From the IMG/VR virus record IMGVR_UViG_3300003690_000004: 20,000 bases of DNA. The stretch is one strand, 5' to 3'. The translations under genes were made by a program, and so were the position numbers. Within the stretch, counting starts at the first letter, position 1. Every line of letters begins with the position of its first letter. This document shows, one piece after another, positions 4,531 to 19,936 of this stretch. Source of the DNA: an uncultured virus (IMG/VR IMGVR_UViG_3300003690_000004). Its lineage: Duplodnaviria; Heunggongvirae; Uroviricota; Caudoviricetes. The notes beneath the pieces were generated by a model, which searched no databases, was not told the origin of the DNA, and saw only the letters and a program-made list of their open reading frames with translations.

Positions 4531-4562
4531 TTATTTATTCGGTGGGGGTAATCAAAACAAAA

Positions 4563-5435: not shown

Positions 5436-5447
5436 TTTTTTCCCACC

Positions 5448-5786
5448 TTATTCTTCACCTGTGTTTATATTGTTGAATCCTCGGGAGCCACCGTCATAAA
5501 CGGGATGAGGCACGACTCTAACGATTAGGACGGTGCCGTAGTTAACGAGAATCCACCCTCCGTTTTCTGAGGCGTCGAGAGCCGCAAATTTAGTCTTGTC
5601 TTCATCCGACAAATTCAGCATCCCTTTTTCGACATACTCCGCCGATAAAAACTGCCTCTCCATTTCGGTGACTTGAACCTTGACTTCTCCGCTCTCATCT
5701 GTGTGACTCATCTCGATTGGGAAAAAAATATCGTAGATTGCGTTTTCATTAGTGTCGTCATCCATACTCGTCACCTGCTGTTGCAT
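5448..5786 (-). CDS. Acidic hypothetical protein (112 aa)
   Basis: Operon-packed ORF. Confidence 0.75.
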   Translation of the reverse strand: MQQQVTSMDDDTNENAIYDIFFPIEMSHTDESGEVKVQVTEMERQFLSAEYVEKGMLNLSDEDKTKFAALDASENGGWILVNYGTVLIVRVVPHPVYDGGSRGFNNINTGEE

Positions 5787-5789
5787 CTT

Positions 5790-5975
5790 TCAGAGTTTGA
5801 TGACTCCACCACACTCTGTACAAATCAATTCGTCGTCGGGCGTGACCGCGACGCAATAAAAATTAGACGGCGACATCCGAGCATCCCGCGGCGTCATCCC
5901 TTTCTTAGCGTGGGCCAAACCACAGGCCCCATGTGCGGAAATAATCGCTCGGTAAATCGTCCCCATAAAAATCAC
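5790..5975 (-). CDS. Small Zn-ribbon protein
   Basis: HGAC...C...CTECG; GTGA overlap with the upstream gene. Confidence 0.65.
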   Translation of the reverse strand: MIFMGTIYRAIISAHGACGLAHAKKGMTPRDARMSPSNFYCVAVTPDDELICTECGGVIKL

Positions 5976-6181
5976 CGTCTAACACTACAAATCTCATTTC
6001 CACAGATGTTACAGAACAGAATCATTCCACCCTGTTCTTCTGAATTTAACCGTAAATCAAGATGGCCGGAGAACCCGGAGGACGCATCCATTCTTCCGTT
6101 TCTTGATACCATAACACATTCTGAATGGTCTTTCATCAAGGTAGCCCATGATGGAAGACTCATGTTCCACTCGTACTGCAT
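5972..6181 (-). CDS. Small Zn-binding protein (MQYEWN...)
   Basis: HSEC...CNICG; ATG at 6181 follows GGGAGGG and the stop of the preceding gene. Confidence 0.65.
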   Translation of the reverse strand: MQYEWNMSLPSWATLMKDHSECVMVSRNGRMDASSGFSGHLDLRLNSEEQGGMILFCNICGNEICSVRR

Positions 6182-6182
6182 C

Positions 6183-6488
6183 TTAGACCCTCCCGTGCCA
6201 CTTGTTTTCTTTGAGGTGTTTCTCCCCACGCGCCCATGTGATAAAAGCGTCATGGTCCTTCATGCGGTACAGGACGCGCCTTCCCGACTTATCCTTATCC
6301 ACACCCACAGAGCCACGGAGCATATTGGAAATGCTCGTGGGTCCGTTGAGAAGGCGACGACTTCGGCGCCTCTCGCATAGGATATCACAAATTTGCTGGG
6401 CGCTTAACCATCGAGGGTTTTCAGCGAGTGCTTTACCGATGTACACGCGCGGAGTGTACTTCCGGTTGCTGTGTTTGGCGTTAGTCAT
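6183..6488 (-). CDS. Winged-helix DNA-binding protein (MTNAKH...)
   Basis: IGKALAENPRWLSAQQICDIL...TSISNMLRG..GVDKDKSGRRVLYRM wHTH pattern; TGATG coupling at 6488. Confidence 0.7.
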   Translation of the reverse strand: MTNAKHSNRKYTPRVYIGKALAENPRWLSAQQICDILCERRRSRRLLNGPTSISNMLRGSVGVDKDKSGRRVLYRMKDHDAFITWARGEKHLKENKWHGRV

Positions 6489-6895
6489 CAGAGGTCCCTC
6501 CGTGGGGCGAAGTCTGAGTCCTTTTCTATTGATGGCATACAGTCGGGGGCCCGCGCCTCTTTGCAGTACGGCTGGTCCCATTCACCCCCGAGAAAGAACA
6601 TATCGCGGGCGGTTGCCACAGCCCCGCATGATAGACATACGAAGGTTCCGTGGGCGCGACCCTCCAACCATTCCTCCGGGCGATTGTTTGCGACAATCCC
6701 TTGAAAAACACCCATGACTTTCTCAACGAATTCTTCTGAATTATTTTCCATCCACTGTTCGATATCAATTTTGAGGTCTTCGTCCATCTCAATATCCTCG
6801 TGGATTTCATCTTCACATACGCACAGGATATCCTCTGCGGTGAAAGTCATCTTCCACAGTAGCCACTTGGGGGGTCGGAAGTCGTTTGGTAGCAT
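6488..6895 (-). CDS. Acidic protein with C-terminal Cys cluster (MLPNDF...)
   Basis: AGGAGG RBS before ATG at 6895; CLSC...C...C. Confidence 0.7.
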   Translation of the reverse strand: MLPNDFRPPKWLLWKMTFTAEDILCVCEDEIHEDIEMDEDLKIDIEQWMENNSEEFVEKVMGVFQGIVANNRPEEWLEGRAHGTFVCLSCGAVATARDMFFLGGEWDQPYCKEARAPDCMPSIEKDSDFAPRRDL

Positions 6896-6896
6896 T

Positions 6897-7049
6897 CTAT
6901 TCTTCCTCCTGATTGTGCGGACAGACATGAATTGGGTTTGTCTTATCCAAGTGTTCGCGGCAGGTATGCGTCGGCAATTCGTTACCGCACTTGCGGCATA
7001 TTACACCACGGAGTACCGTCATATCAAGGTTTATCATGTCGGTCGCCAT
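6897..7049 (-). CDS. Small Zn-finger protein missed by the ORF track (50 aa, MATDMINLDMTVLRGVICRKCGNELPTHTCREHLDKTNPIHVCPHNQEEE)
   Basis: Manual translation; GGAG RBS; TATAAA at 7091-7086; stop abuts the next ATG. Confidence 0.7.
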   Translation of the reverse strand: MATDMINLDMTVLRGVICRKCGNELPTHTCREHLDKTNPIHVCPHNQEEE

Positions 7050-7197
7050 CGCCGCTCTCCGCTAATCTGAACAGACCTTCGGTAGTTTATAGTCTTAGTG
7101 ATATTGGCGTTTAACTACCATTGGTAATCAAAAGAAAGGGCTTCGCTATGGTCGGAATTTGTTACGGCCAAAATTTCTGCCTCCGTGTTTATACAGT

Positions 7198-7530
7198 TTA
7201 GGATGACTCTGCGCGCTCAACGGACCAACCCATCTCGGACGCCTTCTCTCCGAGAACCTGTTGGTGGACGCTTGAAGTGCAGTCGTTGACCCACGCCTCC
7301 GCCTCTTTGAGCCACGCCTCCGCCTCCCCCCCGGTGGCCGAGCCCGCGTAGTAGTTAAGGTGGAGGCCGAGGTTTGGAATCTTGATTCGGACGGCGATAT
7401 ACCGGTTCTTTCCGGGTTCGGGGTTGTCCCAATTCCATAGTCGGATTGTCCCGCACTTGAATGTGTCTAACACACGCGCGAGATTAGGTAGGTCGCAACG
7501 GTGTATGTCGTATTGATTTGTGGTATTCAT
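7198..7530 (-). CDS. Hypothetical protein (110 aa)
   Basis: GGAGAGAG before ATG; T-tract downstream. Confidence 0.75.
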   Translation of the reverse strand: MNTTNQYDIHRCDLPNLARVLDTFKCGTIRLWNWDNPEPGKNRYIAVRIKIPNLGLHLNYYAGSATGGEAEAWLKEAEAWVNDCTSSVHQQVLGEKASEMGWSVERAESS

Positions 7531-7545
7531 CTCTCTCTCTCCGCT

Positions 7546-7638
7546 CTAATCTGACGATTGAATAACCTCGCTATTAACCTTGCCGGTCAACCCATTAGTG
7601 GTCCACGAGTAGTCCGGGGGATTTTTCTCTTCCGTCAT
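7546..7638 (-). CDS. Putative leaderless 30-aa peptide (MTEEKNPPDYSWTTNGLTGKVNSEVIQSSD)
   Basis: ATG 21 nt after the TATA 10-mer of the promoter cassette at 7660-7703. Confidence 0.4.
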   Translation of the reverse strand: MTEEKNPPDYSWTTNGLTGKVNSEVIQSSD

Positions 7639-7659
7639 TACTCTGAGCAGAGCGTTGGC

Positions 7660-7703
7660 GATTTATAATCATATTGATGGCGTGATTTATTAAAATTGTA
7701 ACC
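7660..7703 (-). promoter_or_regulatory. Promoter cassette A copy 1
   Basis: GGTTACAATTTTAATAAATCACG-N11-ATTATAAATC. Confidence 0.8.
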
Positions 7704-7716
7704 TCGGTCAACACTT

Positions 7717-7724
7717 AAAAAAAA
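7717..7724 (-). terminator. Oligo-T terminator (archaeal type)
   Basis: T8 run after the last gene of the upstream operon, just before the promoter cassette. Confidence 0.55.
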
Positions 7725-7748
7725 CGGCGGGCGTCTTAGTCGTGGTGG

Positions 7749-7868
7749 TCACTGCTTCGTCCCCCATATCCCACCGTGGCGGTGATGCTCGATACAGAAG
7801 ACCTTCGGTAGTTTGTCGGAAGTCGAAAACCATGAGCGAATGCTTTTTCCACAAGTGGCGCACTTCAC
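7749..7868 (-). CDS. Small Zn-finger protein missed by the ORF track (39 aa, MKCATCGKSIRSWFSTSDKLPKVFCIEHHRHGGIWGTKQ)
   Basis: GAGGTGA RBS, GTG start, CxxC...CxxH. Confidence 0.65.
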   Translation of the reverse strand: MKCATCGKSIRSWFSTSDKLPKVFCIEHHRHGGIWGTKQ

Positions 7869-7879
7869 TCTTTCACCTC

Positions 7880-8014
7880 TCAATCCAACCACCCCATGAC
7901 CTTCACCAAGATGAGAATAGCAACAAGGAGATTAGCGAAGCCGACGAGCGTTCTCGTCAATTGCATTTGGCCGACATGATGGTTTGACCAATCCTCGATT
8001 TCATCACCCGTCAT
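7880..8014 (-). CDS. Small membrane protein missed by the ORF track (44 aa, MTGDEIEDWSNHH...LVGFANLLVAILILVKVMGWLD)
   Basis: GAGGTGA RBS; hydrophobic C-terminal helix. Confidence 0.7.
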   Translation of the reverse strand: MTGDEIEDWSNHHVGQMQLTRTLVGFANLLVAILILVKVMGWLD

Positions 8015-8020
8015 GTTTTT

Positions 8021-8257
8021 TCACCTCTTCTTTTCTAACCTCATCCAAAATATGTTGTCGCTTCGGCGGTTCTGCTCAAAGGTCCCTTCGGGCCAACCAG
8101 CATAAGGATTATCTTGCCAAAGACTCCCAAACTCAACATTTCCAAAGGCGTCTTGTGCGTCGTTGAGGAAACGGAAGTAGCGACTCATCACTCTTTTCCC
8201 CTCAAAATCCACACCTGTTACCTTGTAAATTATACAGCAATTCATCCGGTGTACCAT
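8021..8257 (-). CDS. Hypothetical protein (MVHRMN...)
   Basis: ATG at 8257 directly after the stop of 8263..8811. Confidence 0.65.
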   Translation of the reverse strand: MVHRMNCCIIYKVTGVDFEGKRVMSRYFRFLNDAQDAFGNVEFGSLWQDNPYAGWPEGTFEQNRRSDNIFWMRLEKKR

Positions 8258-8262
8258 CGGAC

Positions 8263-8811
8263 TCACTCTTCCTCGTCGCACCCACACCAACAGTTTTGGC
8301 AGAAGGCATTCGCGCAACCGTCGCAGTCCTCTAAGTCACTTTCTTCGGAGTAGTCGGAACAGCCCGCGCATTGACCGTAACCGTCGCAGGGCGTATTATT
8401 GATGATAACCGGAGCCGCTTGACGGGTGCCCCAGCGGTCGTCATCGGCCGTGTCTAACTGTGGGTATTCCATGAAAAACAGACCCTCCTGTTCTGAGGGT
8501 TCTCGCTTCAACATATAGCGGGGGATGATGGCTATAAGCCCACTATCAACACCTATCTCTTCGCCGCCGACGCACTCTGAGGGTTTTTGATGCTTGAATT
8601 CCCAACACCCATCACCGCCGGGTGATGAATGAATCTCGCAGAGGGCCCATTTGGCCGGAATTTCGTCAAAGGTGGTGGGGATGCTCACTGATACAGGGTA
8701 TGAAACTTTTCGCAGTTTGTTTTCCATGTGGCTGTACTGCTCTTTGGAGAGAACATAACAGGGGTCCCCCACGAAGTATTCCCAATCTGTTTTTATCTCT
8801 AAAATCGTCAT
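8263..8811 (-). CDS. Conserved viral hypothetical protein (GDPCY / GDG / VDSG motifs, DUF4241-like) with Cys-rich C-terminus
   Basis: YFVGDPCYVL, GGDGCW, IGVDSGLIAII; C-terminal CAGC..CDGC..CQNC; GAGGTGG RBS. Confidence 0.7.
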   Translation of the reverse strand: MTILEIKTDWEYFVGDPCYVLSKEQYSHMENKLRKVSYPVSVSIPTTFDEIPAKWALCEIHSSPGGDGCWEFKHQKPSECVGGEEIGVDSGLIAIIPRYMLKREPSEQEGLFFMEYPQLDTADDDRWGTRQAAPVIINNTPCDGYGQCAGCSDYSEESDLEDCDGCANAFCQNCWCGCDEEE

Positions 8812-8823
8812 GTTTTTCCACCT

Positions 8824-9057
8824 CTAAACTATGTTCCCACACCATGCACAGAAAGGGGCCCGATTATCATAGACGGCACGGCCTCCGCGGGTATAGCGGA
8901 TATGGCCGTGGGACCCGTTGCCTGCGTTGCACCACTGCCACTCGCCCTCTAGGAAATAAACAGGACTGCATCGGGATTGGTCGTAGTCATCTCTGTCGGC
9001 CTTGCTTATGCCAATGCACGCAGGGGGCCACGGGTGAATCTCAGTAATCGTCGTCAT
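8824..9057 (-). CDS. Small Cys/His protein (MTTITE...)
   Basis: GGAG RBS; C...H...CAWC. Confidence 0.6.
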   Translation of the reverse strand: MTTITEIHPWPPACIGISKADRDDYDQSRCSPVYFLEGEWQWCNAGNGSHGHIRYTRGGRAVYDNRAPFCAWCGNIV

Positions 9058-9328
9058 CTTCTTTCTCCACGGGCAGATTGACGCAATCGTCAATACAATA
9101 GAGCAGGTGTCCGAGCCAAATTTGGAAGTTTATGTTTCTCTCTCCGATTTCATCCAATTCGGTGACTTTGCTCTGGATTAACCTTTTGAGACTCTCTTTA
9201 TTGACTGCGCCAAACTCAGCAAAATCTAAGTCTGTTCTTACGACTTGGGTTCGGTGTCCTTCAAGGCACGAAAAGTCAGCGGGACCGAGATTACCACCAC
9301 ACTCTGCACAGTAGCCGATATCAGTCAT
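9041..9328 (-). CDS. Hypothetical protein with N-terminal Zn ribbon
   Basis: CAECGG...CLEGH; GGAGG RBS. Confidence 0.7.
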   Translation of the reverse strand: MTDIGYCAECGGNLGPADFSCLEGHRTQVVRTDLDFAEFGAVNKESLKRLIQSKVTELDEIGERNINFQIWLGHLLYCIDDCVNLPVEKEDDDDY

Positions 9329-9542
9329 TTTTTCGCCTCCCGTGTTTCATGCCGCGTGTCGTGATAGTACGGTTCCGGCAGGTGATGGAGCAGAACATAC
9401 GAGCGTTCCACTGCTTATCGCTGACGCCGTGTCGTCCGCGCGGACGATAGAATTCCTCTGCACAGCATTTGCACACCTTTGAGAGGAAATAGAAGTAGTC
9501 GCGCCCGTCGTACCGCGGGTCGAAAGGTGGTCCCGTCCGCAT
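9321..9542 (-). CDS. Small Zn-finger protein (CxxC...FCSxxC)
   Basis: KVCKCCAEEF...FCSITC; GGAG RBS. Confidence 0.7.
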   Translation of the reverse strand: MRTGPPFDPRYDGRDYFYFLSKVCKCCAEEFYRPRGRHGVSDKQWNARMFCSITCRNRTITTRGMKHGRRKND

Positions 9543-9545
9543 ATT

Positions 9546-9803
9546 TTACTCTCCGTTCAATTCCTCTTCCGCGAGGGTCATGTTATCTTTGAAGGTGCCA
9601 ATGTGCGTGTCGCACTGAAAACAAGCGAGGGTCTTAACCTCATCCTCGTCCTTATTAAGAAAATGAATCATCCATCCGAGGCTCAGAGAGGTTTCTCCAC
9701 AGGAGCGGAAATTCGGACATTTAATTGCATGGGTGATTCCATCGTACCCGTACTCTTTGGTGGTCCCGTCCGCATAGGTGATTAGTCCGATATGCTCCAT
9801 CAC
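9546..9803 (-). CDS. Small Zn-ribbon protein
   Basis: CPNFRSCG...CFQCD; AGGTGA RBS. Confidence 0.7.
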   Translation of the reverse strand: MMEHIGLITYADGTTKEYGYDGITHAIKCPNFRSCGETSLSLGWMIHFLNKDEDEVKTLACFQCDTHIGTFKDNMTLAEEELNGE

Positions 9804-9806
9804 TCA

Positions 9807-10037
9807 TCACCTATTAATTTTCCACGCCTCTTTTGCCTGTCTGTATCTGCGGACTATCTCGTCGTATGAGCGGGCGATGAAACTGAGCCACACGCCGATG
9901 AGGGCTCCGAATAGGAAGGTCGTGAAGGGATGATGTGATAATTCATAAAAATCACCACTGAAATATGCTAAGGCGACCGGTGCGCCAACAACAAGCGGCA
10001 TGGCGATAAGACAAGCCTCTGCGTCGTTATCAATCAT
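9807..10037 (-). CDS. Small membrane protein (2 TM)
   Basis: Two hydrophobic segments; GGTGA RBS. Confidence 0.7.
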   Translation of the reverse strand: MIDNDAEACLIAMPLVVGAPVALAYFSGDFYELSHHPFTTFLFGALIGVWLSFIARSYDEIVRRYRQAKEAWKINR

Positions 10038-10377
10038 CCGGCATCACCGTGTCTCTGATATCAATTACGAAGGGGGCATGGTCATCATGCGAGCGGACAC
10101 CCTTCCAATCAACCTCGCCCGCGGCCATCTCGCCGGCGTCTATGATTAACTGCCTTTGATATCCTATGAGGTCCCACAGCACTTGGCAGTCATCATTTGC
10201 CATGTGCGCTTCGACGCTATCCGTGGGATTCAATTCAAGGTATTTCTCTTTCAGAAATTCCATCGTTTTCTCTGCGATACTTCGGATTCTCTCGTGGCGA
10301 TGCTGGAAGCGTATCGTGAATTCGTAGCCGCGCTCTTCGTCTTCGCCACCGGTAACGGGGTTGTACTTCGTCATCAA
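10030..10377 (-). CDS. Hypothetical protein
   Basis: GGAGGGGTGA RBS; operon-packed. Confidence 0.75.
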   Translation of the reverse strand: MMTKYNPVTGGEDEERGYEFTIRFQHRHERIRSIAEKTMEFLKEKYLELNPTDSVEAHMANDDCQVLWDLIGYQRQLIIDAGEMAAGEVDWKGVRSHDDHAPFVIDIRDTVMPDD

Positions 10378-10782
10378 TCACCCCTCCAAGTCATCCCTAT
10401 TAACCCTGACGGTTTGCTCATCTAAGGTCTTGCTGATATCCTCTGCCACGATGTCGTTCGGGTCCCCGCGTGGTATGATATCCCATGCGTCTGATTGACT
10501 CTGTTCAACCTCGACCGTAGCCTTTCCGGCCTCGCTCATGTGCTTGAGCGCGAGCAGAGCGAATTTGCAGTTTTGAACGGAGCCATCCTCTAGGACCGTA
10601 AGAATTTTACGGGCACTCTTTTCCTCAATGATACATCTGTACACGAGAGCATTTCTATGCCTGTTTGCTTGAGCGCGTTGGTGCATTACACTCTGCATGG
10701 CGGACGCGCAGGGGATGAAGCACTCAAGGCCCATGTCGTCGGCGATACCCATGTAGCATCTGCGCTGTCCTTCATCGCTCAT
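10378..10782 (-). CDS. Hypothetical protein (MSDEGQRR...)
   Basis: GGAGGG RBS; ATGA coupling at 10782. Confidence 0.75.
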   Translation of the reverse strand: MSDEGQRRCYMGIADDMGLECFIPCASAMQSVMHQRAQANRHRNALVYRCIIEEKSARKILTVLEDGSVQNCKFALLALKHMSEAGKATVEVEQSQSDAWDIIPRGDPNDIVAEDISKTLDEQTVRVNRDDLEG

Positions 10783-10937
10783 GTTCGGGTCCCTCCGAAG
10801 AAACACTTCATCGAGCAGAAGACCTTCGCATCTAAGGCGTTTTGAAGGGCGGGGCCATCGCCACGCATCCCGAAGTCACAAGTCTGCCCACAGCGACAGC
10901 ATACGCTGGGTACCTCTTGGTTAACTACTCCGCTCAT
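10779..10937 (-). CDS. Leaderless small Zn-finger protein missed by the ORF track (52 aa, MSGVVNQEVPSVCCRCGQTCDFG...VFCSMKCFFGGTRT)
   Basis: ATG exactly 19 nt after GTTAAATACT; CxxC...FCSxxC; stop overlaps the next ATG. Confidence 0.75.
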   Translation of the reverse strand: MSGVVNQEVPSVCCRCGQTCDFGMRGDGPALQNALDAKVFCSMKCFFGGTRT

Positions 10938-10956
10938 AATTAACCATTATCTTCCA

Positions 10957-11000
10957 AGTATTTAACTGTTGTGATTTCGTGATTTATTAAAATTGTAACC
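10957..11000 (-). promoter_or_regulatory. Promoter cassette A copy 2
   Basis: GGTTACAATTTTAATAAATCACG-N11-GTTAAATACT. Confidence 0.85.
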
Positions 11001-11037
11001 ACGGGGGGCCGCTTTGCACACACGAGCCATCAAGATT

Positions 11038-11322
11038 TCAGCCCTTCTTTTTGAGGCCCAATTGAGAGAGAAAGACCCGATAGGATTTCTTGATGAAATC
11101 GAATCCTGAATTGGTTTGGAATTTCACACAAGGCACCCAGCGGCCGCGAATGAGCCTACCCCGAAAATCGTTGTGAGATGATTCCGAGTATGGTTCATAG
11201 TGAGATTTCTCCCAGCGATATTCGACCAACATGAGGTACATTTTCTGCGGTGGAGCGCCTGCTCTCTTTGGACGCCGGGTGCGATAGTGTGGTAGTGATA
11301 CCCTGAATTTCTTATCACGCAT
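11038..11322 (-). CDS. Basic hypothetical protein
   Basis: Overlaps the stop of the upstream gene; last gene of the unit. Confidence 0.65.
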   Translation of the reverse strand: MRDKKFRVSLPHYRTRRPKRAGAPPQKMYLMLVEYRWEKSHYEPYSESSHNDFRGRLIRGRWVPCVKFQTNSGFDFIKKSYRVFLSQLGLKKKG

Positions 11323-11602
11323 AGCCGAGCGCCTTCCTGACGATTAGGATTTCAAAGGGTAATTGTTCTATCATTTTCCACCGTAGGTATTCACAGGTCA
11401 AGAACAGGTGGAATTCCGGTGGGTACTGCTCGTGGTCGAATACGGCAGGCCCGAAGGGCGGAATGAATTCGTGGAGCGTTAACGCCCCGTTCATCCTCTG
11501 AATCCAAGCAATTTTCTTTCTCATTTGCTTTTTCCACAAGTGGAATCCGATGACCTTCTGTTCTGCCTCTTTCATGCGGGCCAGCGCCTCCATTTTGGTC
11601 AT
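11315..11602 (-). CDS. Hypothetical protein (MTKMEA...)
   Basis: ATGA coupling at 11602; GGTGA RBS. Confidence 0.7.
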   Translation of the reverse strand: MTKMEALARMKEAEQKVIGFHLWKKQMRKKIAWIQRMNGALTLHEFIPPFGPAVFDHEQYPPEFHLFLTCEYLRWKMIEQLPFEILIVRKALGYA

Positions 11603-11781
11603 AGCAATATCACCGCCACAGCCATGCCGGTGAAACCGGCAAGAAAACAAATCCCGATTTTGAGTAAGAATAACAATTCCCGAATTTCTTCGTCGTACAC
11701 CGCCTGCGAGAAACCCGAAGGGTGCGGCGGTCCTGTTCCGACCGGTGGGGCAGGGGAGAAACGCTCAGGCTTCAATTTCAT
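11599..11781 (-). CDS. Small membrane protein (MKLKPE...)
   Basis: C-terminal hydrophobic segment; ATGA coupling. Confidence 0.65.
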   Translation of the reverse strand: MKLKPERFSPAPPVGTGPPHPSGFSQAVYDEEIRELLFLLKIGICFLAGFTGMAVAVILL

Positions 11782-12248
11782 CGCCCCACCGAATCCCAAT
11801 TAATCCAGCCCTCGCCGTCGTAGTCGCGGAGGCACTCAGTCGCCCACGCATCAACGGAGGTGTATTCGTCCAGCATTAGGAAGGTCGCCACCGTTGCGCT
11901 CTCGGCTCGGTCAAGGGTTCGGCTCGCGCCGTCATACCAATCTAAGAACCAAAACTCAATCGAGCCGTCGGCGTATATCCTGACTTCTTCGGACGGGCCA
12001 CCCCAAGAGAATTGAAACCTAACGAAGCCGCGACGCTGTTCGTTGAAGGTTCCAGCCCCCACGAAATCTAGCGATAGGCCGTAGTCGTATGGCTCGCCGT
12101 CCTCGTCGGGCTTGTAGCCGTCGGGGTTGTCGTCTGCGTCGTACTCCCCTTGATTGAATCTCTCAAGGTCAGCAAGGCGCGAGTCCCGCGCAGGGCATAC
12201 CCTATCTGCGCACTTATCGCTGATGGGGGCGTTATCACTCATATTCAT
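11778..12248 (-). CDS. Conserved viral hypothetical protein (YGLS..SWGGPSEE..LDWYDGA)
   Basis: Aromatic/acidic motif pattern I recognise from uncharacterised virus proteins; ATGA coupling. Confidence 0.75.
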   Translation of the reverse strand: MNMSDNAPISDKCADRVCPARDSRLADLERFNQGEYDADDNPDGYKPDEDGEPYDYGLSLDFVGAGTFNEQRRGFVRFQFSWGGPSEEVRIYADGSIEFWFLDWYDGASRTLDRAESATVATFLMLDEYTSVDAWATECLRDYDGEGWINWDSVGR

Positions 12249-12553
12249 CGCCCCCTAAGTTTCCGGAATGACTTGAGGCACGACGGACACATTTCAGCGT
12301 CCGTTGGTTTTCCCTTTCGGAATCCCCTTCCGCACATCAAGCACTTGAAATGAAGTCGCTCTTCCTTTTTAATAATGAGGCGCCGCTTCTGACCTTCCGG
12401 AGTCCAATCATGCAGGCGCGTGATGTTGTTCTTGTGACGAATGCTTTTTCCCGTGTTGATAGTTTTTATGACTTCATCCAAGCCATCACCCTTTCTAATG
12501 GATTTATCACTCATACGACATTTCACCTTCCAAAACTCCTTCCCACGGTCCAC
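12245..12553 (-). CDS. Basic protein with C-terminal Zn ribbon
   Basis: CLMCGRGF...CPSC. Confidence 0.65.
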   Translation of the reverse strand: MDRGKEFWKVKCRMSDKSIRKGDGLDEVIKTINTGKSIRHKNNITRLHDWTPEGQKRRLIIKKEERLHFKCLMCGRGFRKGKPTDAEMCPSCLKSFRKLRGR

Positions 12554-12887
12554 CCCTTTCTGAGTTTTTCTGCCGTAGTTTGGCTACGCACCCGCCGAGG
12601 CTGTGCGAGTCAATGTGGAGTATTTTGGTCCTGTTGCGAGACACGAGGCAGAGCCGGAAGGTCATGCCACCGGTTACAAGCGGGGACTCGTCGTGATTAT
12701 TATTCAGGGGAGAAATTGCTATGCTGACGCCGGAGTCTGCGAGTAATTTCATCTCTGTGTGACTGAGCCAATGGGTGATTCCGAGGTACCGCTCGCTCGC
12801 GGCATAGCCGTCATCCCGAGAAAAATCGGCCTCCGTACTTTTGAAATCGGTCGAAGGACACTGACTGAATCCGCTCCACTCATTCAT
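12507..12887 (-). CDS. Hypothetical protein (MNEWSG...)
   Basis: GGAGGGTGA RBS before ATG at 12887. Confidence 0.6.
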   Translation of the reverse strand: MNEWSGFSQCPSTDFKSTEADFSRDDGYAASERYLGITHWLSHTEMKLLADSGVSIAISPLNNNHDESPLVTGGMTFRLCLVSRNRTKILHIDSHSLGGCVAKLRQKNSERGGPWEGVLEGEMSYE

Positions 12888-13146
12888 CGCCGTCACCCTC
12901 CGCATTCGTTGGAATGATGATGCCGTCCTTGTGTCCGAGCCAATCCGAATCATACTTCTCTTGGTCCTTCGTGCGCTGATTCTTAGGCGTGAAGCCCAGC
13001 GGGTCTTCAAGCCACGATTGGAATGCCTCGTGGGTGACGATTCTTGGTCGGCGGATGAAAAACAAGAAATCGCCGTCCACTTTACCGGCGCGGAGCGTAT
13101 TGCTGTGGAGTTTGTGGCCTTCCCAGCCGCACTCGCAATCAGACAT
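12880..13146 (-). CDS. Hypothetical protein, N-terminal CxCGW
   Basis: GGAGGT RBS. Confidence 0.7.
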   Translation of the reverse strand: MSDCECGWEGHKLHSNTLRAGKVDGDFLFFIRRPRIVTHEAFQSWLEDPLGFTPKNQRTKDQEKYDSDWLGHKDGIIIPTNAEGDGDE

Positions 13147-13249
13147 GAATTATACCTCCGATGCCATCGCGTATAGCCTTATCGGGAAGGTATTCCTCAT
13201 AGGTCCACTCATCGGTTTCGACACGCAGTCTGAGAATCAAGGTAATCAT
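13139..13249 (-). CDS. Putative 36-aa protein missed by the ORF track (MITLILRLRVETDEWTYEEYLPDKAIRDGIGGIIHV)
   Basis: ATGA coupling with 13246 stop; GGAGGGG RBS; fills the gap exactly. Confidence 0.55.
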   Translation of the reverse strand: MITLILRLRVETDEWTYEEYLPDKAIRDGIGGIIHV

Positions 13250-13449
13250 GGTACCCCTCCGCAGGTGAGGCACACCCAAATGATTTGGCGACTAAAGCCC
13301 CATACCCGCGCCTCTGAGGTCGGGCATGGGCAGGTGCAATCGAACAGGTCATGGCCTAGAAGGTGAATCATACTACGCCTCCGCACCGCGTACACAGGGA
13401 CCATCGCCCGGGGCCGCGTCCGCTCAGAGTCAAAATCGGCAGGAAACAT
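13246..13449 (-). CDS. Small Cys-rich protein
   Basis: CTCPC...CLTCG; ATG abuts the upstream stop. Confidence 0.55.
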   Translation of the reverse strand: MFPADFDSERTRPRAMVPVYAVRRRSMIHLLGHDLFDCTCPCPTSEARVWGFSRQIIWVCLTCGGVP

Positions 13450-13617
13450 TCACACTTCTGTTGAGTCAAATTCTTCACCACCGTTTTCCATCTCATCTAA
13501 GCAATCTTGGGAGCATATTCGGGGGCCGAATTTGTACTCCCCGTTCGCATCCGTGTGAACATCTGCGCAACAGCAGTCACAGCGCCCGTCACGCTCAAAG
13601 CGTCGCTCAAGCCCCAT
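13450..13617 (-). CDS. Small Zn-finger protein (MGLERRFE...)
   Basis: GGGAGGGG RBS; CDCCC...ICSQDC. Confidence 0.6.
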   Translation of the reverse strand: MGLERRFERDGRCDCCCADVHTDANGEYKFGPRICSQDCLDEMENGGEEFDSTEV

Positions 13618-13960
13618 CGGACCCCTCCCTGCCGATTTTGACGCTGTGACTGCTCGCGCCCAATTTGAGAATCGTATCAACGGTCGCGCTTCGGAATCGT
13701 TCGCATCCATCCATCATGGCCTTGATATCATCGTCGGTGAGTCTAATCATCGCGCCGATGCGCGTCCCCGTTGAGCCGATTATCTCGATGTGCGGGGATA
13801 TGGTACCGAGTACGATACGGGCCCTGACGGTGCCCTTCTTGAAGGGCAGTCCCCTCTCGGGAAGGTCAATCATTATCGGGGGTACATCCGAAAAGGTCAT
13901 AGGGCCCCGATAAGGATGGAGCCTGCCTGCTTCGCGGTGTTCTTTCTGTGAATCAACCAT
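13607..13960 (-). CDS. Hypothetical protein (MVDSQK...)
   Basis: GGGGAGGG RBS before ATG at 13960. Confidence 0.65.
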   Translation of the reverse strand: MVDSQKEHREAGRLHPYRGPMTFSDVPPIMIDLPERGLPFKKGTVRARIVLGTISPHIEIIGSTGTRIGAMIRLTDDDIKAMMDGCERFRSATVDTILKLGASSHSVKIGREGSDGA

Positions 13961-14339
13961 TATAAATTCCCTCCCCAATTAAATCCTTTCGGATATCTCG
14001 GAATGGTTTTTCAGTGAATGAAGTGTCGCGCTCAATCGGGAGCATCATGGAGCCCGGGGACCGCGCTACTGCATTGAATTCTGCCATTGAAAAGTAACCC
14101 CACTCACCGAAGGTGCCGTCCACGAATCCGAACCATGTTTGATTTTCTTCATCCCACTCGGTCGCGTACCAAGTCCAAGAAGACCACGGATGGAAATACT
14201 TGGCAACGATGATAGTCCCGTCAGGAAATCGTTCGGAGGAATCCTTGAGTCGTGGGTCCTGCCCGCCTGCTCTCCAATCCTGCGAGCCGTGCCTGTCGAA
14301 GCGTTGCTTTAGGTACTTCGGCATCAATTTTGCTTGCAT
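13953..14339 (-). CDS. DUF2958 family protein
   Basis: VAKYFHPWSSWTWYATEWD...FGFVDG..EWGYFSMAEF...PIERDTSF is the characteristic pattern; AAAGGAGG RBS. Confidence 0.85.
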   Translation of the reverse strand: MQAKLMPKYLKQRFDRHGSQDWRAGGQDPRLKDSSERFPDGTIIVAKYFHPWSSWTWYATEWDEENQTWFGFVDGTFGEWGYFSMAEFNAVARSPGSMMLPIERDTSFTEKPFRDIRKDLIGEGIYNG

Positions 14340-14687
14340 AATTTTTCCTCCTTTGGGTTTCCGGCGACCCCCCCGCCGCCGAGCGGAGGACGCCTATTCC
14401 GGCCCTTGAGAAGCAGGCGGGCCGCTCCCTCTCTCCCCGCCGGAGTGCAATCGGGGACCCACGCCCGCCGTCCGGGCTGTGCGGGATTTGCACCCGCGGT
14501 GATGGGCCCCGAGCCTGTAACTCCGAGATTGCGCCACGCTCCAAACGCTCGCATAACCCGGCTGTCGGGGAGAGGTGAAGCGGGTACTCCCGCATTCCCG
14601 ACACCACACAGAATCACATCTGCTCTCACGGAATTAACCGGAGTATGGCTATCGGTTCGGGAGGGAGCCACCCCTCCTTCTGCCTCT
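14340..14687 (-). ncRNA. Candidate structured RNA or 5' leader (~350 nt)
   Basis: Starts at the predicted TSS of cassette copy 3 without ATG; many nested stems with G-U pairs; T-loop-like hairpin GCGGG-TGCAAAT-CCCGC. Confidence 0.6.
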
Positions 14688-14706
14688 AATTAACCATATA
14701 TGTTCA

Positions 14707-14750
14707 AGTATTTAACTGTTCCGATTTCATGATTTATTAAAATTGTAACC
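14707..14750 (-). promoter_or_regulatory. Promoter cassette A copy 3
   Basis: GGTTACAATTTTAATAAATCATG-N11-GTTAAATACT; 14687-14750 closely resembles 10937-11000. Confidence 0.85.
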
Positions 14751-14882
14751 CGGGCCCCGCTCCCCCGTGTGCGCCCGCAGGCACACACTTTTTCCACGAC
14801 CGTTTATCTGTCGCAGGCCACGCAGATGTAAGAGGAAATCAGGTCCGAATTTGTCCCGAGGGGGAGGCCGCCTCCACAGACC

Positions 14883-15149
14883 CTACAAACCAGCATTGAT
14901 TTTTCCCTCCCGAATTTCTTCATCTCGTGCGCGTGCTTGAATGAATGCTACGCGGTCGCGCGTCACCCACACGCGGGGGTTACGGGTCCCACATTTTCTG
15001 CATCTGCTTTCCTCGGTGCCGGGGCGCTGTGTGACCCACAGCCATAGATGACCGCAACAATTCGCCCGTCGCTTTTCGCAGGTCGGAGCAATTTTGATTG
15101 GGCCCACACGCGAGGACGCGGGGAAAACCCAAGTCAGTTTTTCTGCCAC
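14883..15149 (-). CDS. Small Zn-ribbon protein
   Basis: GAGGTGA RBS, GTG start; CCGH...CRKCG. Confidence 0.7.
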   Translation of the reverse strand: MAEKLTWVFPASSRVGPIKIAPTCEKRRANCCGHLWLWVTQRPGTEESRCRKCGTRNPRVWVTRDRVAFIQARARDEEIREGKINAGL

Positions 15150-15152
15150 GGT

Positions 15153-15293
15153 TCACCTCTCGGGCGGCCACGGGGTCGTCGGCGCCGAGAGAATTCGGCG
15201 GATGAAAAACATGGTGATGGCCCACTTGAAGCCGGGCGTACCCACGATGACGGGGGGGTCCATCCGCATGAGGATGAGAGCCTCAGTTTTCAT
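15153..15293 (-). CDS. Putative 46-aa protein missed by the ORF track (MKTEALILMRMDPPVIVGTPGFKWAITMFFIRRILSAPTTPWPPER)
   Basis: Fills the gap between neighbours; its stop lies in the RBS of the next gene. Confidence 0.5.
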   Translation of the reverse strand: MKTEALILMRMDPPVIVGTPGFKWAITMFFIRRILSAPTTPWPPER

Positions 15294-15558
15294 CGGAGTC
15301 CCCCGGCATGGTTAATTCCAACCACCGCTTTCTTGAGATGATTTCCCACTCCTTCGGGTCGAATCCGACCTTCGGAATCGCTTCCCAAGTCGGCTGTTTT
15401 CTGCCACGGAATTCTATGAAGCCTCGGAAGAGATAACCCGCCCGCGTCACGACTTCGCGCTTGAATTCGGCCTCCGTTTTATTCCAAAGGATGCTCGTTA
15501 CGGGCATTCGTGGTTGCCCCCACTTGGTCAAGTGGGCGACGGGAATCTCAGCCTTCAT
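15283..15558 (-). CDS. Hypothetical protein (MKAEIP...)
   Basis: GGAG RBS before ATG at 15558 (alternative ATG at 15570). Confidence 0.65.
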   Translation of the reverse strand: MKAEIPVAHLTKWGQPRMPVTSILWNKTEAEFKREVVTRAGYLFRGFIEFRGRKQPTWEAIPKVGFDPKEWEIISRKRWLELTMPGDSDEN

Positions 15559-15646
15559 TTTTCTCCGCATTTTCGGCCTCCGTTTTATTCCAAGCCTTAA
15601 GGCACGAGTGGCAGATAGCACGGTCTTGGCATAGGCACTCAGTCAT
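15548..15646 (-). CDS. Putative 32-aa Cys-rich peptide (MTECLCQDRAICHSCLKAWNKTEAENAEKNEG)
   Basis: GGAG RBS right after the predicted TSS of cassette copy 4. Confidence 0.55.
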   Translation of the reverse strand: MTECLCQDRAICHSCLKAWNKTEAENAEKNEG

Positions 15647-15676
15647 TTTCGGCTCCGAATATCCATGTTTTGTGCA

Positions 15677-15720
15677 AGTATTTAACGGTTCCGATATCGT
15701 GATTTATTAAAATTGTAACC
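15677..15720 (-). promoter_or_regulatory. Promoter cassette A copy 4
   Basis: GGTTACAATTTTAATAAATCACG-N11-GTTAAATACT. Confidence 0.85.
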
Positions 15721-15893
15721 GGCTGTCGGGGAGGAACCGAAAATTCGCCCGGGGGTCTGCGGACTCTCTCTTTTTTAACGGCTCCCGATTTCTTCCGAAG
15801 GAAATCTGTGCCTGATTTATTATACTTTTCTGCGGTGGTTTTTGTAACCCGGTAGGTGTAAGCCGCGAGGGCGCCGCGCGTGTGGGCTCCCCC

Positions 15894-15914
15894 GGTTACA
15901 ATTTTAATAAATCA
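15894..15914 (+). promoter_or_regulatory. Inverted copy of the cassette A upstream element, without TATA
   Basis: GGTTACAATTTTAATAAATCA on the plus strand; GC-rich where TATA should be. Confidence 0.7.
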
Positions 15915-15959
15915 GCCTGCGAATCTGCGGGCGCGGGTTACAAAAAACGAATCCACGAT

Positions 15960-16331
15960 AAAAAAAGGGGGGGTCGAGGGGGCTCACCGTGTCGGCTTTC
16001 CCCGGTTTCCCGGGCACCCCCCCGACCTTATGTGTCCGCTCATCACACGACCTCGCGCCGATGATTTCAGCCCCCGTAATCTCCCTCGGTTCCGTGCGCG
16101 ATTCCGGAGCCGTTGCCCGTGCATCTCAACCTTCGGATTTTCGCCCGGTGGATTCCTCCTGAGAATCCCAGCCTCATCTGATACAGGGGTTAAACGGTTT
16201 CCCATTCTCCCTCGCACACTTCGCCGACAGATTTTCGGGGATTGATTTCATCAACGGTCGCTCGTGTGGTGCGGCCTATTGCTCCGCTCTCGCGGAGGAC
16301 ACGCGTGTGACGGGCTCACGGACCTCGATAA
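15960..16331 (-). ncRNA. Candidate structured RNA 3' of DUF932 (~370 nt)
   Basis: GNRA-capped hairpins, long-range closing stem, terminal stem followed by T7. Confidence 0.6.
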
Positions 16332-17462
16332 TCAGAGGTACATTTCCGTGAGAATTCTCATCGCCTTTTCCTTGCGTTGCTTACCGTGCCTGAACACGGC
16401 CGATTCGTCGCGGCGAAGTTTTGCCTTCCCCGCATTCTTTCCGGACTTGATGATTCTTGCTTCGTGGTCAACCCACTCGGTCACGACATTGATTCCCTGC
16501 CATGCCGTGTCGTTCATCTGTCCGATTCGGTTTGACTTCCGCTTCTTGATGCTGTTCAATTCCTTGAGTCGCCTCTTGGATGAAGTCACCAATTGCCCGC
16601 GCTTGCTGTGTTTTTCGCCCGCGCTATCCTTCTCCGGATAGGTCGAAAGGTCGAAGACCTCGATGAAAAATTCGTCCATCGCTTTCTTCGTCATTTTGAC
16701 TTGGATTAGGTCGTTGGCAATTACGCCGAATTCCTCGTGCCATTTCATAGCCCAACCGAAAGCCTCTCGCACATCATCCACGCGGTTCATCATATTCCCC
16801 GTGTGCCTGATGTTGAAGATTTCTTCCCTCGATTTTGCCTCTCCCAGCGCCATGCTGAGAGTGTTTTGGCATACAACGCGAACGGTGGTCGGAAGGACCT
16901 TGACTGAGCCTGTGCCATCGTGACTGTTCGTGAGCAGAACATAGAGGTCTTGACGGTCATCGTCGCCGATGTTTATTGAATGTGGAATTTTCGCCAACAT
17001 CCAAACCTTTTCCCCCTGCCCTAGAGCCCCCGCACAGTCAAAATTTGCCTCCTGCGATTGTACTAATTCGTCCATGAAAGTGAAGGCGTCGTGATTTTGG
17101 AGCGGTACATAAACCCGCCCAACAGCCTTCCCCTTGCGCGAGAGGGCGCGGCGGTCGCCGCCACCCTTTGCCTCACGATAGGTCATATATGTCTCAGGTG
17201 CTTCCAAAATTTCGGTTCGCTTGATAACGGGCGTCCCGTCCTTCTTTCGCTTGATGCGTCCTGTTGGGGTCCGCGCATACACGGGGACCTTTGCCTCAAG
17301 CGGCACCTTATGGACCGTCCAATCGAGATGTGCTAATTCAAGGCATTCCTGAGAAGTCATCAAGCCCGGGGTCGTTACCCCGAGGCGGTGCCACGGGGTC
17401 TGTCCCGAGCCGGTGACTACTTCGTAATTCCCGTCTGCGTCAACGCTGATATTTGCTACCAT
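16332..17462 (-). CDS. DUF932 family phage/plasmid protein (TIGR03299-like)
   Basis: TPWHRLG, LDWTV, YVPLQNHDAF, GALGQGEKVWMLAK, YVLLTNSHDGTGS, RVVCQNTL, IRHTG, TAWQGINVVTEWVDH motifs; AGGAG RBS. Confidence 0.9.
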   Translation of the reverse strand: MVANISVDADGNYEVVTGSGQTPWHRLGVTTPGLMTSQECLELAHLDWTVHKVPLEAKVPVYARTPTGRIKRKKDGTPVIKRTEILEAPETYMTYREAKGGGDRRALSRKGKAVGRVYVPLQNHDAFTFMDELVQSQEANFDCAGALGQGEKVWMLAKIPHSINIGDDDRQDLYVLLTNSHDGTGSVKVLPTTVRVVCQNTLSMALGEAKSREEIFNIRHTGNMMNRVDDVREAFGWAMKWHEEFGVIANDLIQVKMTKKAMDEFFIEVFDLSTYPEKDSAGEKHSKRGQLVTSSKRRLKELNSIKKRKSNRIGQMNDTAWQGINVVTEWVDHEARIIKSGKNAGKAKLRRDESAVFRHGKQRKEKAMRILTEMYL

Positions 17463-17820
17463 TGTTTTCTCTCCTGTCGGTTTGACTAGCGGCCACTTGA
17501 TGCTCAGGCGAGGCTCCCGAGCCTCACACCTTTCGCGTCACCGTACCACGGCTTCGGATTGGCACCTTTGGGAATTCCAGCCCTCATTTTTCTCCCCTCG
17601 GAGGTTCGCCGGTGGTCCTGTACCGATTGCAGTCGGTACGCCACCGACGGCCCCCCTTTGAGTGTACGCAGTCCTGCCCGGCCCTCGCGGGTCCCGGGGT
17701 CCTTTGCCTCGTACCGGAAATCAGAAGAATTCGCTAGTCGGATTCGTTACTGCCTTAGACGCTAAGGTCGTAGGCAGGAGGGTTTCTGAGGGGGGTATTT
17801 CGCCGCCCTTTTTCGCCCTC
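17463..17820 (-). ncRNA. Candidate structured 5' leader/RNA upstream of DUF932 (~360 nt)
   Basis: Begins at the predicted TSS of cassette copy 5; multiple hairpins; 8-bp long-range pair GACTAGCG/CGCTAGTC. Confidence 0.55.
17504..17587 (-). CDS. Possible 27-aa leader peptide (MRAGIPKGANPKPWYGDAKGVRLGSLA)
   Basis: GGGGAG RBS; start region nearly identical to that of the gene at 15558. Confidence 0.3.
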   Translation of the reverse strand: MRAGIPKGANPKPWYGDAKGVRLGSLA

Positions 17821-17839
17821 AGTTATCCATCCCTCTACT

Positions 17840-17883
17840 ACTATTTAAGGCTTCCTATTTCATGATTTATTAAAATTGTAACC
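17840..17883 (-). promoter_or_regulatory. Promoter cassette A copy 5
   Basis: GGTTACAATTTTAATAAATCATG-N11-CTTAAATAGT. Confidence 0.85.
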
Positions 17884-18433
17884 TGCGCTTATGAATCCTG
17901 CGGTTGATTTTGTAACTGAGCCCCCCACGCGGGCGTGAGGGATTTGGACCTCTAATATCCTGTTATCCGGCCGCGTCACACGCTCACGCGCGAGAGGCTC
18001 ACCTAATGAACATTCTGTTACTTAGTGTGCCGGAGGTTACTTAGTATCTATTTGGAAGTCCACCCCACCTCCCTCCCTGTGGTCTGTTTTGAGTGGTGGA
18101 TTTTACCGAACCGGTTCGGTTTTGTAACTCCGATTTTGTAACCGGGGGTTTCGCCCGTGGGAAACCACAAAATGTAACCTAGAAATTGTAACTTAGGATT
18201 TCAGCCCCCGAAATTTGAAATTTAGCAGACGGCGTTTTTGTAACCTCTTTAAGGCCCGTCGAAAAGAGCGAAAAAATTGTAACCGCGATTTTGTAACCTC
18301 GGCGGGGGCGCGGAGCCGGTGGCGGGAGTTACAATTTTGTAACTTGGTATTTTTTGTAACCCAAAACTCTTTAAGCCCCGAAATCCTGAGTTACAAAATT
18401 GTAACCCACGCAGGTTACAAAATTGTATCTTCA

Positions 18434-18455
18434 AAACCGTTGTACTGCGAGCCTG
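18434..18455. repeat. Motif B copy 2
   Basis: AAACCG-TTGT-ACTGCGAGCCTG. Confidence 0.75.
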
Positions 18456-18638
18456 TTTTCAAAAATTGTAACTTGGGAGCGAGCCCCCCCTGTACTCCCC
18501 TACTCAGAGCCACCGGCGCCGTCGAAGTTACAATTGGGGCGCAGTACAACGGTTTTTTTTGTAACCCCGATTTAGCGTAAAAATAACAGCCTCCCATGCG
18601 CATAAAATCCGAAGGCGGGGGTTGTTCATCGGCGTCAC

Positions 18639-18682
18639 AGTATGTAAAGGTGCCGATATCGTGACTTATAAAAATTGTAACC
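18639..18682 (-). promoter_or_regulatory. Promoter cassette A variant, leftward
   Basis: GGTTACAATTTTTATAAGTCACG-N11-TTTACATACT. Confidence 0.65.
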
Positions 18683-18726
18683 CCGGAATTGTAACCGCGA
18701 CCCGAAGTACAAAATTGTAACCCCCA

Positions 18727-18770
18727 AGTTACAATAAGCATAAGTCACGATATCATCACAGTGATATACT
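18727..18770 (+). promoter_or_regulatory. Promoter cassette A variant, rightward
   Basis: AGTTACAATAAGCATAAGTCACG-N11-GTGATATACT, then 19 nt to ATG 18790. Confidence 0.75.
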
Positions 18771-18789
18771 ATGCCGACGAGTCCCAACC

Positions 18790-19020
18790 ATGCAAACAGG
18801 ACCACAAGACGAGCCGATGACCGGACAGAACCCGACAGTCGAGGCCAACGGCTACATCATGCGATGGGAGCCAATGGACCCGTACCTTCACGATAGACTG
18901 TCGCTCGGAGCGGGTCAAGGCGACCGCATCAGTACCCCGAACGCCACCACGACGAACGACCTCGGAGAGTGCCCCGATGAGAACGACGGGTGCCCCTCCG
19001 TACAGTGGGGGGTGGCATGA
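18790..19020 (+). CDS. Leaderless acidic hypothetical protein (76 aa)
   Basis: ATG at the same TATA distance (19 nt) as the gene at 10937. Confidence 0.65.
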   Translation: MQTGPQDEPMTGQNPTVEANGYIMRWEPMDPYLHDRLSLGAGQGDRISTPNATTTNDLGECPDENDGCPSVQWGVA

Positions 19021-19193
19021 TGGCGGCGATAGATGACGCGCTTCAAGTCGTGCTGTGCCATAACCTCGTGTGGCTGATGGCATACACGGCGCTTGACTTC
19101 GGGGGGTGGTTGTGACCGGCGTATTGTAACCTCGGCAAATTCGGCCTTTTGTAACCGGGGCCCCTCTTTTCCTATCGAAAATCGGCGATATTA

Positions 19194-19249
19194 ATTGTAA
19201 CCCGGGTATTGTAACCCGGGTATTGTAACCTCGGAATTGTAACCGGGGA
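19194..19249 (+). repeat. 4 x 14-bp tandem repeat ATTGTAACCNNGG(T/A)
   Basis: Units at 19194, 19208, 19222, 19236. Confidence 0.9.
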
Positions 19250-19715: not shown

Positions 19716-19809
19716 TTCTCTCTTTCCTCTTTTTGAGAGGGGGACCCTCTTTTGACGGGTCTTTTTCCCTCTGAGGCCGGATAGGCGGAGTGCTGAAAAT
19801 GGACCTTAA

Positions 19810-19863
19810 TGCAGAAATGTTACTTAGTGCAGAAATGTTACTAGGTGCAGAAATGTTACTTAG
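19810..19863 (+). repeat. 3 x 18-bp tandem repeat TGCAGAAATGTTACT(TA/AG)G
   Basis: Units at 19810, 19828, 19846. Confidence 0.9.
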
Positions 19864-19936
19864 TGTGCCCGGACTCACCTATTCCGGATTCCGGAAGCAA
19901 AGTCGAAAACACTTATCAATAAATCCGGATTGTGGA

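Follow-up and report, generated by a model that had tools for sequence, protein, structure and literature searches.

Organization of the DUF932 locus

The window (the whole 20,000-nucleotide stretch analyzed) comes from a 76-kb parent contig and is the early region of a tailed phage, since the 37.9-kb IMG/VR contig G001, which carries the related locus L081, is collinear with it from about 6900 to 18700 and encodes a large terminase, a portal, and a 2009-aa tail-fibre protein. The early region is organized by a 64-nt promoter/leader repeat that is present in six copies, all on the minus strand, and is conserved in L081; the repeat begins GGTTACAATTTTAATAAATCA and has TTAAATA about 35 nt in, and a standard -35/-10 spacing is not fitted. 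The octamer GGTTACAA occurs 27 times in the 20 kb (0.37 copies expected), with clusters at 18117-18301, 18670-18723, and 19105-19247 and single boxes at each early promoter; some copies form arrays at a 14-nt spacing (19190-19247), and others pair up as palindromes (GGTTACAAAATTGTAACC). In G001 the octamer is found 32 times at corresponding places, and the set resembles a genome-wide system of operators or iterons for a DNA-binding protein. Three tandem 18-nt units resembling AAATGTTACTTAGTGCAG lie at the window edge (19797-19865).

The DUF932 gene has an AGGAG-type ribosome-binding site before its ATG and ends with a TGA stop codon at 16334-16332. Its product has enzyme-like invariant motifs (N-x-H-D-G-T-G, R-V-V-C-x-N-T, and R-H-T) and no sequence relative in the PDB (best E 0.073); its AlphaFold model (mean pLDDT 71) has no clear fold match by Foldseek (best E 0.033), and the best VIA-align match (Z 6.5, rmsd 3.5 Å over 108 residues) lies below the background of 7-8. 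Neither the sequence comparisons nor the model comparisons give a hint that DUF932 uses an RNA, and a literature search on DUF932 listed no paper on an RNA, an RNA motif, or a leading region. The DUF932 leader (17463-17830, minus strand, ∼370 nt) lies between a promoter repeat and the Shine-Dalgarno/ATG and is identical with L081 in about 75% of aligned columns, with a fold z score of only -0.89; it holds a short open reading frame (ORF) start, GGAGAAAAATGAGGGC, which is repeated at 15541-15566.

The region of interest is the 372-nt spacer that follows, which runs on the minus strand from the DUF932 stop codon exactly to the end of a T-run (15960..16331) and contains no credible gene. Its parts and neighbors are as follows.

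16332..17462, minus: DUF932 gene, 376 aa (Pfam PF06067, E 1.3e-51; phrog_1221, E 2.3e-68)
16275..16331, minus: 5' part of the spacer, lineage-specific, without an alignable counterpart in L081; holds hairpin CUCCGC-GAGA-GCGGAG (16297-16282)
16262..16274, minus: motif A, CCGC-AC-CACACGA; 5' strands of candidate helices P1 (16274-16271) and P2 (16268-16262)
16051..16261, minus: variable domain, a predicted long irregular branched hairpin that includes AAUGG-GAAA-CCGUU (16206-16193) and GGAUUC/GAAUCC
16036..16050, minus: motif B, UCGUGUG-AUGA-GCGG; 3' strands of P2 (16050-16044) and P1 (16039-16036)
16028..16035, minus: linker ACACAUAA (AUUACAUAA in L081), conserved and predicted to be single-stranded
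15972..16027, minus: Y-shaped hairpin with a three-way junction, the same minimum-energy fold in both phages
15960..15971, minus: C5 spacer (15971-15967) and U7 (15966-15960), the presumed transcript end
15657..15943: downstream control region, with GGTTACAA boxes, a sigma-70-like site, and a promoter repeat
15936 (+), 15894 (+), and 15842 (-): GGTTACAA boxes of the control region
15848->15819, minus: sigma-70-like site
7640-7703, 10937-11000, 14687-14750, 15657-15720, 17820-17883, and 18619-18682, all minus: copies of the 64-nt promoter/leader repeat

Downstream of the T7 in both phages come GGTTACAA boxes and then the next 64-nt promoter repeat; the L081 layout is the same, with more boxes and a second, canonical terminator 40 nt further on. 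The box at 15894 (+) is extended to a full GGTTACAATTTTAATAAATCAG and is oriented back into the hairpin. At 15893-15914 (plus strand) the opening 22 nt of the promoter repeat occur once in inverted form, 46 nt past the T7 and facing the Y hairpin and DUF932; this copy may be an antisense promoter or simply an operator. No promoter-like site was found on the minus strand inside the spacer. Further along, a perfect 22-nt direct repeat (15466-15487 and 15572-15593, 106 nt apart) has one copy in a leader and one in the following ORF.

Composition and folding of the spacer

The initial annotation described the spacer as a compact, GNRA-rich RNA of about 370 nt, possibly ribozyme-like, with a long-range closure and a box D/C-like kink-turn candidate, and direct reading of the minus strand finds all of the listed hairpins and motifs in place. 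These are the GNRA hairpins CUCCGC-GAGA-GCGGAG and AAUGG-GAAA-CCGUU mapped above, the third one, CCCGG-GAAA-CCGGG (16014-16001), hairpins UUGA-UGAAA-UCAA and GGAUUC/GAAUCC, the closure strands CGUCACACG (16312-16304) and CGUGUGAUG (16049-16041), CUGA at 16070-16067, GUGAUGA at 16046-16040, and the final stem with its T7 (15966-15960). The richness in GNRA loops is borne out: three occur on stems of at least 5 bp where 0.17 are expected, a count reached in 1 of 2,000 dinucleotide shuffles, and every other 372-nt tile on both strands of the window has at most one; with stems of at least 4 bp, 21 of 2,000 shuffles reach three.

The whole spacer folds with -163.1 kcal/mol (z -3.43, equaled by none of 100 shuffles; opposite strand, z -2.56), and its 200-nt tiles have z scores from -1.9 to 0.0 and are not outliers against 165 tiles from positions 1-16600 (mean z -0.39, sd 1.26). 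Five 200-nt tiles outside the spacer, mostly in coding sequence, have z scores of -3.4 or lower. The stability of the whole spacer stems from long-range pairing, and with its tiles so ordinary, the observation is real, yet the thermodynamic signal alone is not exceptional. The most stable tile scanned is elsewhere, at 14401-14600 on the minus strand (-104.3 kcal/mol, z -4.1), in overlapping ORFs (14221-14671) just after a promoter repeat. As for the long-range closure, both strands are present, but the 3' strand is contested by helix 16268-16262/16050-16044, which the energy model prefers (pair probabilities 0.96-0.99) and whose 5' strand falls in the sole upstream motif common to the relative.

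The spacer is non-coding, as had been supposed. The 77-aa frame at 15984..16217, whose conservation as a protein was to refute the annotation, has only a 22-aa counterpart in L081, the nine mechanical ORF translations of the region have no match in a collection of 15 billion proteins, the opposite-strand frames are unrelated by BLASTP (E 4.5), and Pfam and PHROG give no match. A protein-coding gene was rejected on the absence of a conserved frame and on indels of 1 and 5 nt in the block conserved between the two phages (see below).

The Rfam check that the annotation had called for was run with Rfam 15 over the whole window and returned no match at the gathering threshold, whether to ribozymes, group I or II introns, riboswitches, GOLLD, ROOL, OLE, raiA, or C4 RNA; the annotation had recognized no group I or group II intron core. 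With the cutoff relaxed to E values up to 10, four further scans give only noise-level scores far below those thresholds, and on the hairpin the highest are mir-4667 (19.4 bits, threshold 68) and RT-13 (13.8 to 15.7 bits, threshold 69.1). Several specific candidates were set aside. A hammerhead has the junction GAAA but no CUGANGA strand and no Rfam match, and GUGAUGA has G where the consensus core needs C. A kink-turn and group II domain V were considered and dropped; for the proposed box D/C-like pair, L081 has GUGACGA and lacks CUGA in its whole spacer, and in the preferred helix AC, without GA, stands opposite AUGA. No second copy was found for a diversity-generating retroelement (DGR) template repeat, and no reverse transcriptase was found among the ORFs scanned for a retron.

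Conservation between the two phages

The only close relative with retrievable DNA is L081, whose DUF932 protein is 59 to 61% identical. Its spacer, from DUF932 stop codon to T-run, is 265 nt long and thus 107 nt shorter, and in BLAST and MAFFT alignments the two spacers match over no more than the final ∼90 nt, window positions 16046-15960 with L081 3818-3911 at 89% identity with gaps. Conservation ends exactly at the T-run, and the first ∼270 nt of the spacer are unalignable. In the block 78 of 85 ungapped columns (92%) are identical, compared with 686 of 1,126 (61%) in the DUF932 coding sequence, whose best 90-column window has 69 identical; the block has the highest percent identity among BLAST segments between the window and G001. 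Inside it are the two indels of 1 and 5 nt.

Upstream of the block, the best and only local match has motif A, CCGCACCAC(A/G)CGA, as its core, with 18 of 23 positions identical (score 13, reached by 26 of 1,000 shuffles). Between motifs A and B lies the variable insert, with a length of 211 nt in the window against 71 nt in L081. All three GNRA tetraloops are missing from L081, whose spacer lacks a GNRA hairpin even when stems as short as 2 bp are allowed. The description as a structured RNA is supported at the 3' end, where a strand-specific fold is conserved; the picture of a single compact, ribozyme-like RNA of ∼370 nt is not supported, and the part upstream of the 3' module is lineage-specific and evolves fast.

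Structure of the conserved 3' module

The Y fold is the minimum-energy structure in both phages, with -37.4 kcal/mol and 59% of the ensemble in the window and -39.7 kcal/mol and 56% in L081. Its outer stem has 12 bp (16027-16016/15983-15972; 9 G-C, 1 A-U, and 2 G-U) with an A-rich stretch, ACAUAA, on its 5' side. Inner hairpin 1 is CCCGG-GAAA-CCGGG, followed by a GAAA junction (GAAAA in L081), and inner hairpin 2 is GCCG-ACA-CGGU (15996-15986), followed by a GA junction. In L081 hairpin 1 is CCCGGG-AAUUCG-CCCGGG, so that loop and stem extension are swapped and the hairpin is preserved; this is the only structural change in the module between the two phages. The 71- to 78-nt hairpin alone has z scores of -1.8 (window) and -2.0 (L081) compared with -0.34 and -0.31 for the opposite strands, and three G-U pairs, which the complementary strand would turn into C-A, assign the fold to the DUF932 strand; in these energy calculations the fold is specific to the DUF932 strand. 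Identity is found in 18 of 18 and 31 of 32 paired columns (49 of 50) of two independent sequences, and with strands so invariant in only two sequences, which cannot show covariation, the helices are predicted ones.

Upstream of the Y hairpin, both phages share a motif B core, CGUG-AYGA-GCGG, followed by the unpaired 8- to 9-nt linker. Motifs A and B could pair as P1 (CCGC/GCGG) and P2 (CACG/CGUG, 7 bp in the window) around an internal loop of AC and AYGA, the latter strand being AUGA in the window and ACGA in L081. In the window P2 has pair probabilities of 0.96 to 0.99 and P1 of about 0.3, and forcing both costs 0.5 kcal/mol in the window and 6.3 kcal/mol in L081. Downstream of the Y hairpin, the favored fold leaves a C-rich gap of 5 nt (window) or 6 nt (L081) before U7, and slipping the stem up against the U-run is penalized by 4.7 kcal/mol in the window and 4.2 kcal/mol in L081. 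A scan for simple terminator patterns does not list the site, and because of the C-rich gap and the cost of slipping it is not filed as a canonical intrinsic terminator.

Occurrence of the element

The element appears confined to a narrow lineage in the collections searched. In a collection of 5.8 billion protein clusters, only three DUF932 proteins exceed 41% identity, P0002 (82%), P0003 (75%), and P0004 (59%). DUF932-based searches covered the best 80 of 584 viral-contig loci, 80 of 592 metagenome-contig loci, and 80 of 239 genome-contig loci, and among the loci kept, those other than L081 are almost all at or below 41%, the exceptions being short partial matches (L004, 44%; L230, 51% over 92 residues). 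A single-protein DUF932 search of viral contigs gave no close relative, blastn of the 381-nt region against phage and plasmid collections gave no match, and DNA-pattern scans together with a scan for the DUF2958-like neighbor gene in viral contigs recovered only the L081 contig, the rest being chance matches (L162, L245, and L253-L261) or an unrelated phage (L251). Across 253 sources (∼1.26 Mb), a covariance model of the 105-nt block has credible matches only in the window and the L081 contig; the next best are L242 (E 0.0086) and L022 (E 0.072), and three more, with E values of about 0.03, contain the 16-mer that was used to fetch those sequences. Among 13 more distant DUF932 loci, 12 have a mechanical ORF of at least 60 aa that begins no further than 113 nt past the stop codon, the exception being L216 with a 288-nt gap, and the RNA is thus a trait of this phage lineage and not a partner of DUF932.

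Three metagenome runs of separate studies (X2, X4, and X5), from marine sediment, marine, and hydrothermal-vent sources, contain near-identical pieces that have no informative variation. The marine-sediment copy (X2) differs from the window by one substitution and one insertion in 629 nt, the substitution at 15968 changing one C of the C5 spacer to give an L081-like CCCAC and the insertion at 16016 adding one G to the G-run of the outer stem. A run labeled metatranscriptomic (X20) has a single 151-nt contig (16210-16360) that crosses the stop codon, and as the run is flagged "probably DNA," it is not evidence of expression.

Interpretation of the conserved 3' end

With only the last ∼90 nt (Y hairpin and U-run) kept in L081, the spacer seems to carry a conserved element of the transcript's end rather than a large ribozyme-like RNA, and the block most likely works at that end. 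Our favored reading, at a probability of roughly 45%, is that the 3' end of the spacer acts in cis on the DUF932 mRNA, terminating or pausing transcription and shielding the 3' end. The position is in keeping with this, in that the spacer begins at the DUF932 stop codon and closes at the T7 on the gene's strand. So are the peak of conservation in the block and its stop at the T-run, the fold shared by both phages on the DUF932 strand, the hairpin-preserving indel, and the lack of a promoter-like minus-strand site in the spacer, whereas the C-rich gap before U7 and the modest z scores of the hairpin alone count against it. On this reading the spacer would be a long, folded 3' untranslated tail of an early mRNA, co-transcribed with DUF932, and the part under selection would be its last ∼90 to 110 nt. 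The module would comprise an A/B helix pair closing a freely evolving insert, the 8- to 9-nt linker, the sequence-invariant Y hairpin, C5-6, and U7; it would stop or strongly pause RNA polymerase before the operator and promoter array of the next operon, and its compact 3' end would resist 3'-to-5' exonucleases. A plain terminator requires structure, not sequence, and the near-invariance of the stem goes beyond such needs, which hints at an added role, for example with a binding partner, or at recent exchange.

The main rival to the cis-acting module is a released small RNA, with the conserved ∼110-nt 3' end processed from the DUF932 mRNA near motifs A and B and acting in trans, either by way of the conserved linker or by serving as a scaffold that a protein binds sequence-specifically, much as 3'UTR-derived small RNAs or phage immunity RNAs do. 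The conservation profile is the one expected of it, the 3' end being far better kept than the coding sequence or the upstream UTR, with 49 of 50 paired columns invariant, a conserved unpaired linker just 5' of the hairpin, and an operator-like box array adjoining the element. Against it, no target emerged: the best duplex with transcripts of the window (-36.6 kcal/mol) is within the range of 40 shuffled queries (mean -33.0, sd 2.4, best -40.6), and 9- to 10-mer complements are at chance level and not common to both phages. A regulator antisense to phage genes was accordingly rejected, since no in-phage target rises above the shuffled controls, and we regard the trans-acting RNA as a whole as unlikely. 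A bolder form, in which the Y domain, linker, and A/B helix make up a new class of phage regulatory RNA that is released from the DUF932 mRNA and recognized base-specifically by a phage or host protein, is speculative and in our estimate unlikely; such an RNA could, for example, work in immunity or antitermination in connection with the GGTTACAA operator network, and the A-B insert would be a tolerated expansion segment.

Phage genomes are mosaic, and the last 90 nt might look conserved only because a functionless block was recently exchanged between the two phages. Only two lineages are compared, and the third, near-identical copy (X2) differs only in homopolymer runs, both of which suit exchange; however, the limits of the block fall on structural ones, where motif B starts and where the U-run stops, with both flanks diverged, the indel preserves structure, and the other conserved non-coding pieces (the promoter repeats) are also functional-looking signals, so that we hold exchange alone to be a distinctly improbable account. 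Conservation at the level of sequence would also befit a DNA signal, such as a recombination (att) core or a hairpin for single-strand initiation or an origin near iteron-like boxes; three GGTTACAA boxes in the window and seven in L081 directly follow the block, and DNA parameters also predict the Y fold on this strand (-19.3 kcal/mol, z -2.0; other strand, z -0.85). Yet a T-run on the transcribed strand bounds the block, a scan of 42 window ORFs recognized no integrase or replication protein, tRNA and tmRNA are absent from the window, plasmid and phage collections gave no match, and larger, more origin-like box arrays are 2 to 3 kb away (18117-19247), all of which makes a DNA-level role quite improbable. 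Least probable is that the whole ∼370 nt is one compact functional RNA, a large ncRNA or ribozyme. The excess of GNRA hairpins, whole-region z scores of -3.43 (window) and -3.92 (L081 spacer), the purine-rich spacer RNA, and the sharing of motif A speak for it, but the 5' ∼270 nt cannot be aligned with the shorter L081 spacer, L081 lacks all of the GNRA loops, no Rfam family matches, the 200-nt tiles are ordinary, and the box C/D-like pair is not conserved; we think it very improbable.

Relationship to known systems

Intrinsic (Rho-independent) terminators have a G+C-rich hairpin with a U-run that starts 0 to 2 nt after the stem, and some are bidirectional. The module resembles them in having a G+C-rich hairpin directly after a gene on the transcribed strand and then a U-run, with A-rich ACAUAA 5' of the stem, at the end of an operon and before the next promoter, but this hairpin is branched, with two inner hairpins in place of a simple stem-loop, its U7 is 5 to 6 C-rich nt from the stem, and the stem sequence is invariant and not merely complementary. 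The 3'UTR-derived bacterial small RNAs CpxQ, DapZ, and SroC share the terminator of their mRNA, and the element is similar to them in location, in a last ∼100 nt better kept than the coding sequence, and in an unpaired conserved stretch upstream of the terminal hairpin; it differs in being phage encoded, known from sequence alone, and lacking a target found in the phage. The C4, CI, and CA immunity RNAs of phages P1, P4, and N15 are cut from the leaders of the operons that they control, and the element resembles them as a small, compact phage RNA whose early or immunity region has many scattered operator boxes, although it lies at the 3' end, has no Rfam match at any threshold tried, and has no complementary target found. 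GOLLD and ROOL share with the spacer the phage context, a length of hundreds of nucleotides, and GNRA loops (in the window copy), but there is no family match and most of the length is not conserved in L081.

Should the cis reading hold, the module would be an ordinary if uncommonly elaborate signal at the end of an operon in an uncultured marine or vent phage, of value mainly for annotation. If the Y domain binds a protein or acts in trans it would matter more, as to our knowledge very few regulatory RNAs of uncultured marine phages have been described, and it would do so beside a dense, genome-wide operator system. The GGTTACAA operator system itself looks like an undescribed phage control circuit.
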